A stretch of 5,059 bases of DNA from a virus (taxonomy: Duplodnaviria > Heunggongvirae > Uroviricota > Caudoviricetes). How positions within the stretch are numbered: position 1 is the first letter of the stretch; the number at the start of each line of letters is the position of its first letter. Positions 1 to 3,000 of the stretch are shown one piece after another. Position numbers: made by a program. The stretch lies in the IMG/VR virus record IMGVR_UViG_2681813313_000012, positions 1-5,059 of that record, one strand, 5' to 3'.

Positions 1-3000
1 CCAGCCACTCCATTCAGTTTCGGAGTAACCGTGGCACTGCCGGCGGTGAACACCAGCTCCAGCGTCTGCCAGTCGTTACTGTAATTCCCGAACTCGCCCA
101 ACTTTGTGTTTCCTGCTTTCTTGTGATGCATCAGATTCAGTTTGCCGTCTGTGGTCTGGGTGAAGAACGACATCAGGAACGGATTACCGGTACCCGTCAT
201 CGCCACGACGTCAGGTAACGCTACATCGGTATACAGATAAATTCCCAGACCGAACTGATTGTTGGTCAGTGCGCCTGACAGTCGAAACTTACAGCTCAGT
301 CTGCCACCCCGTGTCAGCAGGGAGACTGCGTCATCCACCGGGCGCGTCAGGGACCAGGTTTTATTGCTCTGCTTGGCGATCTTAAATACACCACCCGACA
401 ACTGAATTCCGCCGTCCTTAATGGTCCAGCCCTGCGCAGCAGCCTCTCCGGCTGTCGGCAGCAGGGAGATTGTGCGAACGGACGTATCTGCAGACGGACC
501 CGATGGCGTGTCGCCGCCGGGCGAGGGTTTGATTTCCGGTGCCTTACCACTGATGAAGGCTGAGGTGCGCCCGGCTGCGTTCAGAATAGCGGTTGCCATA
601 CGATCGGGAATAATGCCACGACGCGCCCATGAGCTGAAATGCGTCGGGCGATTTGATGATACCCAGTTTTTGTTCGTTCGGGATGCCGAACCGTAATAAC
701 CAGACCCGACAATATCAGGATCTTCTGACGGGTTGTTTGTCGGTGTATTAACTCCGCTACCATCGGTCATAAAGGGAACAAAATAAATCTGCTGGGATTC
801 TTTACCTTTATATGCACCATATACCACTTCATATTGCGTACCGTGTTCTTGTTTCCACGCGTATGTCGTGTCGCCACAAATCCAGGGGACTGATGCCGGA
901 CTTCCACCGTGACACTGCGCCGCCAGCCCGGCAAGGTCAGCACGGAACTGCTGTACCATTGCAAGAAATGCTGCTGGCTGCTGGGCGTAACTGGCATTCG
1001 TCATATCGAATTCCCCCTGCATCCAGCATATCGCCAGCAAAACGTTTTTCGGGTTTTTCTGCAATGCTGCCTTCGTGCGGAAAAGCAGATCCTGATATAA
1101 CGGCTTACCCACTCCCCAGCGAGCCGAATCCTGACTGGCCCCCGTGGACTCGCTGAATGTCCCCTCCGTGCCCTGGGTGAATGCCGAACCACCACGACAG
1201 CATGGTACCAGCAGGATCCCCGCATTATTAGGGATATACGGAAGCAGTTTTTTGGCAATATGTAAGCCCTGTCCGACACAGCCGTACTGCCCTTTGCTCA
1301 GGTCAGCCCGGGGATGGTTAATCGTACTCATATCCTGAACATCATGCAGACAATGGTCAGCAGGAATGATGTCGTTAAATACGCATACTTCACCACCGGG
1401 AGTCACTGTGTTACGACGGGCCAGTTGCTTAATGCGCGGATGGGGCGCATCGTATGAATCCGGAAGCGGAAGCCCTTCACCGTAAGCCATGGCATTGGAC
1501 TGCCCGGCCAGTACGATGACGTAGTACCACTCCGGCTCAGTTGCACCACTGACGACCACATCACCTTCTGCTGCAATCGCCTGCATCAGGGTATAAGGGG
1601 TTATGGCCACCGGACTACCAAACGGCTGCCAGCCCTCTTTCAGTTTATGTGTCAGCTTTTCCGCAAGATCTGACGGCGACGCCGCCCTGACAACATCATA
1701 GTGTTTAAATGCCATGAATCCTCCCGGCCGGGATAATATTGTGAGTAAAATGAGGAGCGGGCTGAAGTCCGGAAGTTACAGGACAATGGCAGAAGAGAGA
1801 CAACAGCCCGCAATACGAAAAAGACCGCGCTATTGCGCAGAGTGATTACTGTCGGATATTATTCGCCAGCTGAAATATTACTTCACGTTTTGTTGTTTAT
1901 TCCTTGCCGCCCGCGTCTCCCAGCGCGGGATTTTTTTGTCCATAAGAAAGCCCCTCCGGAGAGGGGCTGGAGAGTGGCGCTATGTGCCATTGCATGGTGC
2001 CGGGTGCCTCCCGGTGAATTCAGTACCAGCACCTGAATCCGCGATTATCCCATATACCTACTCGCTGATTGCCCCTCCGCACAGGGGGATTCACCATGCC
2101 AGTTTCTTTTAACAAACTCCCCGCAAACCAGACAACAGTCAACCGCCTGAATTGTGAGACATTTAAAAAAAAGGCCCGCAAAAGCGAGCCAGGGAAAATA
2201 AGTGTGGCGCGTTGTACTGGATTCGAACCAGTGACCGATTGCTTAGAAGGCAATTGCTCTGTCCGGCTGAGCTAACAACGCAGGATACAGATAATGGACC
2301 GCCTTCGGGGACCCGAACTCTGCGCAACCAGCTTCGAAAGCTGGCGCTCTTTCCTGATGAGCTAATGGCGGTATGTGATGGTGGCCCTTGCTGGATTTGA
2401 ACCAGCGACCTGGCGATTATGAGTCGCTCGCTCTCACCACTGAGCTAAAAGGCCGGGCCGAAAATAATAATCAGATGAAATCAAAAATCAAGCCCTTGCC
2501 TGGATACATATCTGTCTGGCGGGAAGCCATAATAGCGGTGAAATACAGAGATAAAGTAGGCTCTACTTGAATAACCGCATTTTGCTGCTACAGCCTGTCC
2601 ATATCCATGCCGGGAACATAACATATTTACAGCAACCCGCATCCGTTCCTCAAGTAACAAATTACTGAACCTGAGACCTTCATCCTTGAGTTTTTTCTTT
2701 AACAAGCTCTCACTCATATGCAACTGTAGAGCAATCGCACCAAGCGTCCAGCTTGCTGATATATCTGTTTGAATTATCGCTCTGACTTTGGCACTTATAC
2801 TGGATACACATCCACTTAAAAATAATGACATCCGTTCATCTGATTCAAACAGCGACAGGCAGGCCATCATAAGAAACATATCCGTGGTCTCTCCGGAAAG
2901 TCTCTGACTGGTAATTAAAGCCACAGTCAACGCAGGATTGTTGGGTTCCAGCAACAAGTAAAGCGGAATGTCAGTCAGAGGACCTCTCGTCAGCTTATGC

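Follow-up and report, generated by a model that had tools for sequence, protein, structure and literature searches.

A probably decaying tRNA-Arg(UCG) gene, argN, in an stx-negative resident prophage of Escherichia coli

One model for the tRNA genes carried by phages is codon-usage compensation, according to which they supplement tRNAs that are rare in the host (Bailly-Bechet et al. 2007, as cited in PMC7946995). The closest described counterparts of the locus considered here are the tRNA clusters of the Stx2 phages 933W (EDL933) and VT2-Sakai, in which argN, a 77-nt tRNA-Arg gene with anticodon UCG, lies between ileZ and argO; in VT2-Sakai this cluster is located directly upstream of stx2A. 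We find the same ileZ-argN-argO arrangement in 289 phage records, nearly all from Stx2 phages; in Stx-type lambdoid phages the operon lies between the gene for the antiterminator Q and the late genes. The argN gene itself is already known and annotated in RefSeq. Two genome papers on Stx phages list the ileZ-argN-argO tRNAs and say no more of them, and a 2026 paper describes variation between tRNA-Ile/Arg/Arg and 'tRNA-pseudo-tRNA-Arg' in the cluster adjoining stx2i (PMC13641118). Our search of the literature on ileZ, argN and argO and on the tRNAs of 933W found nothing further of relevance and no expression, processing or charging data on the argN allele described below, and the text and supplements of the 2026 EDL933 AQRNA-seq paper, to the extent that they are accessible, contain no per-tRNA values.

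We analysed a stretch of 5,059 nucleotides (the window) for which two E. coli genomes contain a 100% identical prophage region. The host element is an stx-negative resident lambda-like (lambdoid) prophage of E. coli, and the locus belongs to its late region, where Q precedes it and the lysis genes follow. Along the minus strand the order is Q, ORF6N, IS200C, an HTH gene, ileZ, argN, argO, a terminator, a nanS-p-like esterase gene and the lysis genes; the stx operon is absent downstream, where an STnc100-like RNA and the nanS-p-like esterase gene are found instead. ARAGORN calls three tRNA genes on this strand, with anticodons cat, tcg and tct, and by position and homology the middle one is argN of an ileZ-argN-argO cluster. 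The features of the cluster are as follows.

2464 to 2491, minus strand: sigma-70-like promoter match, TTGATT-16-TATTAT, just upstream of ileZ (pattern match; candidate site)
2379 to 2454, minus strand: ileZ, first gene of the cluster, tRNA with anticodon CAT, tRNA-Met/Ile2 according to ARAGORN and tRNA-Ile according to PGAP (ARAGORN, Rfam)
2295 to 2371, minus strand: argN allele, tRNA-Arg, anticodon UCG at 2335-2337, damaged copy (ARAGORN, Rfam, PGAP)
2205 to 2281, minus strand: argO, third gene of the cluster, tRNA-Arg with anticodon UCU, intact here (ARAGORN, Rfam, PGAP)
2173 to 2190, minus strand: strong intrinsic-terminator-like hairpin GGCTCGC-TTTT-GCGGGCC with a T8 run behind it, next to the end of argO (pattern search)

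The candidate promoter was the one site returned by the promoter search, a yield near chance expectation; at the corresponding place the VT2-Sakai record (AP000422) carries an annotated 'putative tRNA promoter', and it annotates a 'possible rho-independent terminator' after argO.

The RNA encoded at 2295-2371 is 77 nt long with an encoded CCA. Its 5' part reads CCGCCAU-UA-GCUC-AUCAGGAAA-GAGC-G-CCAGC-UUUCGAA-GCUGG, and the 3' part that follows the anticodon arm reads UUGCG-CAGAG-UUCGGGU-CCCCG-AAGGCGG-U-CCA. The D arm (GCUC/GAGC) is intact and has G18 and G19, and the anticodon arm has a perfect stem (CCAGC/GCUGG) closing the loop UUUCGAA. The damage lies in the acceptor (CCGCCAU/AAGGCGG), where six of seven pairs form and A6 opposes A67, and above all in the T arm, whose stem (CAGAG/CCCCG) retains three of five pairs, with A50 (2321) opposite C64 (2307) and A52 (2319) opposite C62 (2309). 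Two features on the minus strand thus hold the lesions.

2306 to 2322, minus strand: T arm with three of the four structural lesions (Rfam alignment and sequence reading)
2304, minus strand: A67, partner of A6 (2366), which makes the acceptor mismatch A6·A67 (ancestral state U67)

The sequence-only reading had described an element of tRNA length with CCA, an intact D arm and a perfect UCG stem-loop, in which two of five T-stem pairs and one acceptor pair are mismatched, and every part of this description stands, both in the sequence and in the Rfam alignment, which marks exactly three non-standard pairs (6-67, 50-64 and 52-62). A fourth lesion had gone unnoticed: in the T loop, UUCGGGU, position 58 is G (2313), where tRNAs near-universally have A. 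Among the conserved tertiary nucleotides A58 is the sole loss, U8, A14, G18, G19, U33, G53, U54, U55, C56 and C61 all being present, including the G53-C61 pair. Both T-stem mismatches are of the A·C type, the mildest kind. E. coli ArgRS recognises its tRNAs by A20, C35 and G36 or U36, and window argN keeps A20 in the D loop AUCAGGAAA as well as C35 and G36 in the anticodon UCG. The discriminator is U73, which is unusual for E. coli tRNA-Arg and is found in all argN alleles.

All three tRNAs align end to end with the Rfam tRNA model (RF00005). Window argN covers model positions 1-71 and scores 37.5 bits (E=2e-5 in the window), above the gathering score of 29; the neighbouring ileZ and argO reach 70.3 and 70.1 bits. 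Alleles of the middle slot that are intact or carry a single lesion score 53-58 bits and those of a three-lesion lineage about 43, so that the window allele has the lowest score among the middle-slot alleles that the model still detects. None of this is reflected in annotation, as the window allele and its relatives carry no pseudogene flag: PGAP and RefSeq label them tRNA-Arg, and ARAGORN calls a tRNA-Arg.

The argN genes of 933W, with which the sequence-only reading had proposed a comparison, and of VT2-Sakai are fully paired in the acceptor (A6-U67) and in the T stem (CGGGG/CCUCG, with one G·U), and their T loop, UUCGAGU, carries A58. Window argN aligns to them gap-free over 77/77 nt with 88.3% identity, and since this likeness comes with the same gene order, it is not a chance match. 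The copies agree in their slot between ileZ and argO, length, anticodon, acceptor 5' strand, D stem, anticodon stem, U73 and encoded CCA, but differ by nine substitutions in the window copy and by the absence of stx downstream of it. Four of the nine damage the structure (G50A, G52A, A58G and U67A), four are loop changes (G17A, C20aA, C32U and C44U), and the ninth is U63C. Because G50, G52, A58 and U67 are carried not only by 933W and VT2-Sakai but also by Lys(UUU)/Arg(UCU)-type homologues that occupy the same slot in other prophages, the four lesions are derived. They are also uncompensated. Across 38 distinct 77-nt UCG alleles the cloverleaf is paired in 95% of cells, and 9/21 pairs are broken in at least one allele, but a compensatory, two-sided change occurs in 0/21, so the mismatches are not a shared feature of functional homologues that alternative pairing would rescue. 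The number of changes itself stands out from the surroundings: between the window and Sakai, 9/77 positions of argN have changed, compared with 1/76 in ileZ and 1/77 in argO (2/153 together; Fisher one-sided p=0.0011), so that argN has diverged about nine times as much as each neighbour.

The same slot in related prophages presents a series of erosion states. A pattern scan with its anchors in ileZ and argO recovered 120 viral-contig loci with 39 different intervening sequences. At one extreme of these stands intact argN and at the other are heavily mutated copies of 77 nt and deletion remnants of 60 nt, with single-lesion intermediates in between; the 77-nt length is retained by most eroded copies. 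As that scan forced exact matches inside ileZ and argO, we did not use it to compare rates and relied instead on a further sample, located through the adjacent HTH protein gene and independently of the tRNAs, which gave 80 loci, of which 76 were usable, with 38 haplotypes; these loci are phylogenetically non-independent, many coming from related E. coli isolates. Among them, in clusters with argO, per-site diversity is 0.015 in ileZ and 0.043 in argO, compared with 0.149 in the middle slot when all forms are counted, 0.071 in its UCG-type alone, and 0.06-0.19 in the spacers. The middle slot therefore evolves near-neutrally, at a spacer-like rate, while ileZ is almost invariant. Lesions, counted as broken pairs, lost universal nucleotides and loss of CCA, follow the same order over 64 HTH-anchored loci: 18 middle slots (28%) are intact, 8 have one lesion, 25 have at least three and 13 are rearranged, whereas ileZ has an extra lesion in 4 loci. 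Erosion is not peculiar to argN, since argO, intact in 33 loci, has one lesion in 23 and three in 8 and is thus damaged in 48%. A58 is kept in all ileZ and argO copies at these loci and in most lesion-free argN alleles. The slot is occupied by Arg-UCG, Arg-UCU and Lys-UUU forms and by an 80-82-nt form with a replaced anticodon arm, which share the acceptor, D and T scaffold; the forms with the replaced arm go undetected by the Rfam tRNA model. Other lineages erode by different routes, namely through U54/U55 changes in the T loop, changes in the acceptor 3' strand and deletions. One stx2-positive context was encountered in the IMG/VR sample.

The exact window allele occurs in 2/5,426 complete E. 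coli genomes, while alleles 95-99% identical to it occur in about 855 of the 5,426 (~16%), O157:H7 included, where they lie in the same stx-negative prophage late region. The widespread parent allele already carries A52, G58 and A67, so that G50A is a rare, private and later change. Other copies in this damaged lineage have converted CCA to UCA, broken a D-stem pair (G10U), acquired a D-stem wobble (C13U) or changed a loop, which indicates that damage is still accumulating. The phage collection holds no argN more than 90% identical to the window allele; 251/261 of its records are at 80-90% identity and resemble the 933W type, a distribution that may reflect deposition biased towards Stx phages. 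The commonness of the damaged parent could mean that it is tolerated or useful, but hitch-hiking with a successful prophage explains it equally well.

From these observations we consider it likely that window argN is a degenerating tRNA-Arg(UCG) gene, hypomorphic or already dead, that has come under relaxed selection. Since the pairs it has lost are kept by intact relatives, we take it for a common tRNA gene on its way to becoming a pseudogene and not for a new kind of RNA. In this it resembles other eroding prophage tRNA pseudogenes, which likewise show derived, uncompensated stem breaks, loss of a conserved tertiary nucleotide, a spacer-like rate of change and deleted or rearranged relatives, and its divergence exceeds that of the tRNA genes beside it; it differs from them in that it is full length, recognised by tRNA finders and free of a pseudo flag in RefSeq, and its loss of function would be a prediction from these changes. 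Of the two possibilities that the sequence-only reading had weighed, a decaying pseudo-tRNA is the one that the intact 933W and Sakai alleles, the divergence and the erosion series favour; for the other, a non-canonical tRNA that would act for instance as a processing signal or integration-site mimic, we see no support.

It is conceivable, but rather unlikely, that window argN is still a working tRNA-Arg(UCG) whose lesions are tolerated, so that it is processed, charged by ArgRS and used to read CGA and CGG, codons that occur at 5.5 and 10.9 per 1000 in the prophage genes. Its score above the Rfam threshold, its recognition by both ARAGORN and PGAP, the retention of the D and anticodon arms, of CCA, of A20, C35 and G36, of U54, U55 and C56 and of the G53-C61 pair, and the presence of the parent allele in so many genomes are all as expected of such a tRNA, and the mild A·C mismatches are possibly protonated wobble pairs. 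These features have to be set against four lesions that are all derived and uncompensated, a divergence far above that of the neighbours together with a slot diversity equal to that of the spacers, the lowest score among detectable alleles, and a lineage that goes on gathering damage, including the loss of the encoded CCA and a break in the D stem. The lesions also fall where tRNAs are sensitive: A58 pairs with T54, and the affinity for EF-Tu is set by the T-stem pairs 49-65 to 51-63.

A different proposal would be that the element has been repurposed as a tRNA-like RNA, in which an alternative hairpin serves as processing punctuation in the tRNA or late transcript or as a decoy for tRNA-targeting enzymes. 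The minimum-energy structure that RNAfold predicts for the window allele indeed contains a shifted hairpin, UUCGG-GUCC-CCGAA, stacked on a 5-bp acceptor, at -25.4 kcal/mol compared with -23.5 for the cloverleaf, a gain of 1.9 kcal/mol; the cloverleaf of most lesion-free alleles lies at -28.3 to -31.3 kcal/mol (lowest -26.5). Three of the nine differences from 933W (A58G, U63C and U67A) strengthen the hairpin, its pair 58-63 is G-C in 17 alleles and A-U in 7, and the 77-nt length persists in most eroded copies. However, U63C improves the canonical T stem too, the hairpin was defined from the window sequence itself, and a minimum-energy fold is not diagnostic, since those of ileZ, argO and 933W argN are non-cloverleaf as well. 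Across the 38 alleles the hairpin is paired in 73.7% of cells, and pair 58-63 is broken in 13/38, including the best-scoring canonical ones; we therefore reject it as a conserved structure. Its covariation at pair 58-63 exceeds that of most shuffles (2-6 of 500), but related alleles inflate such scores, and so modest an excess is what linkage among them would produce. With other lineages eroding by other routes as well, we regard repurposing as highly improbable. No more attractive is the thought that the middle slot is a fast-evolving cassette under diversifying selection, providing for example a decoy or a replacement for host tRNAs that are hit by anticodon nucleases, with the window allele pushed towards the non-decoding fold that contains the shifted hairpin; the odds of this seem very slim. 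As for an integration-site mimic, that is, a tRNA-like sequence serving as or derived from the attachment site of a mobile element, tRNA genes are common integration targets and IS200C lies about 1.4 kb away. In every record examined, however, the cluster sits inside the late region, with Q before it and the lysis genes beyond, and does not mark a prophage boundary; there is no insertion in or beside argN, and the element is a position-for-position orthologue of argN, which leaves this idea with next to no plausibility.

How might decay of argN have come about? The ancestral lineage would have gained G52A, creating the A·C in the T stem, together with A58G and U67A, which gave A6·A67, and the window copy would then have added G50A. 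The gene presumably shares a transcript with ileZ and argO, which would start at the tRNA promoter, be part of the Q-dependent late transcript, or both. In a tRNA, the T loop and elbow owe their shape to the T54-A58 pair and the 5-bp T stem, which also stabilise the L form and on which RNase P and modification enzymes rely. Loss of A58, of an acceptor pair and of two T-stem pairs out of five is predicted to destabilise the T arm and elbow, and the product is accordingly expected to mature badly, to be short-lived and/or to reach the ribosome inefficiently. The outcome would be a weak or dead decoder of CGA and CGG, with probably little or no functional tRNA being made. Selection on argN would have relaxed while ileZ stayed strongly constrained. 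CGA and CGG are read by other host tRNA-Arg species, and it is plausible that the redundancy of argN with these host tRNAs that read CGN freed it from constraint, an argument that rests on host tRNA coverage. This is the weakest step in our reasoning, since the prophage genes do use CGA and CGG. Nor does codon use alone account for relaxed selection, as CGG is used more than AGA (7.0 per 1000) or AGG (5.1), the codons that argO would read; AUA, the codon that ileZ would read, stands at 9.7. The cluster as a whole thus fits codon compensation, but argN, whose codons host tRNAs also read, appears to be leaving that role.

The probably decaying argN of the window is a real feature, but an ordinary one in nature that matters little in itself, as the erosion of accessory genes is to be expected in resident prophages. 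What our analysis adds is small: constraint within the cluster is graded, falling steeply from ileZ to argO and further to argN, and the lesions recur in hundreds of copies that are annotated as 'tRNA-Arg'. Since annotation pipelines label this allele and roughly 850 relatives as plain tRNA-Arg, the decoding capacity of pathogenic E. coli is overstated when its 'extra tRNA-Arg genes' are counted. The unequal constraint within the cluster in turn suggests that, in resident prophages, its main selected function is to supply a decoder of AUA.

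Every argN allele, the intact type of the Stx2 phage 933W included, carries a U73 discriminator (window position 2298) together with a C1-G72 first pair; E. coli tRNA-Arg species carry A73 or G73. Intact argN itself reaches no more than 53-58 bits, where the neighbouring tRNAs reach about 70. Damage in the cluster extends to argO, which is affected in 31 of the 64 related prophage loci that were anchored on the neighbouring HTH protein gene and chosen without reference to tRNAs (L169, L139, L159, L170 and L165 among them), with lesions such as G53·A61 plus G6·G67, or C56A in the T-loop. 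A compensatory T-stem swap (CACTGG/CCAGT to CAGTGG/CCACT) is also seen once in argO and points to structural constraint, a sign absent from argN. The first gene of the cluster, ileZ, is nearly invariant, with an A27·C43 mismatch fixed in 64/64 loci and, in the window, a C5U change that yields a G·U pair. Its antisense strand gives weak Rfam matches to 'Plastid-ycf2 5'UTR' (window 2381-2454, plus strand; 30-36 bits against a gathering score of 65.7), which recur at the same place in every related locus and are almost certainly artefactual, the model of that family containing tRNA-derived sequence.

The surroundings of the cluster hold the following features:

1938-2128, minus strand: STnc100 match (Rfam, 138 bits against a gathering score of 47)
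about 1984-2109, plus strand: partial 'hypothetical protein' pseudogene (RefSeq annotation), overlapping the STnc100 match
3761-4352, minus strand: IS200C copy, with tnpA at 3761-4219
4229-4352, minus strand: STnc490 match (Rfam, 146 bits), immediately upstream of tnpA

The STnc100 match lies directly downstream of the argO terminator, the position that stx2 occupies in Stx phages, and is found in most related loci as well. Some of these loci carry AgvB/AsxR-like anti-sRNAs after it, on the other strand, for which there was no match within the window. On the other side of the cluster, the IS200C insertion separates the ORF6N gene from the genes that precede the tRNAs, and the STnc490 match appears to be part of the IS200 5' region. 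This insertion falls between the antiterminator gene Q and the late genes and might influence late transcription.

The middle slot, the position of argN between ileZ and argO, also exists in an 80-82-nt form (12 of the 64 loci; L180, L162, L173, L193 and L142 are examples of the form), which is called by neither ARAGORN nor the Rfam tRNA model. It retains the acceptor, D arm and T arm of argN, but in place of the anticodon arm there is unrelated sequence (...GACGACAC[C/G]ATAACAGGGTTGTTGG...), which folds as a non-canonical central arm. At one locus there is a weak YrlA-like match, at 28.5 bits well below threshold.

In some prophages a clear homologue fills the slot, a tRNA that shares acceptor, D arm and T arm and has another anticodon:

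L166, 2320-2393: middle-slot homologue with a different anticodon
L137, 2319-2392: the same, Arg-UCU
L132, L136 and L130: further such homologues

The anticodon is Lys-UUU or, in L137, Arg-UCU; the Lys-UUU form carries C33, a position where U is universal. After these variants come tRNA-Thr(UGU) and a fourth tRNA, which replace argO. The pattern looks like anticodon switching inside a single tRNA lineage.
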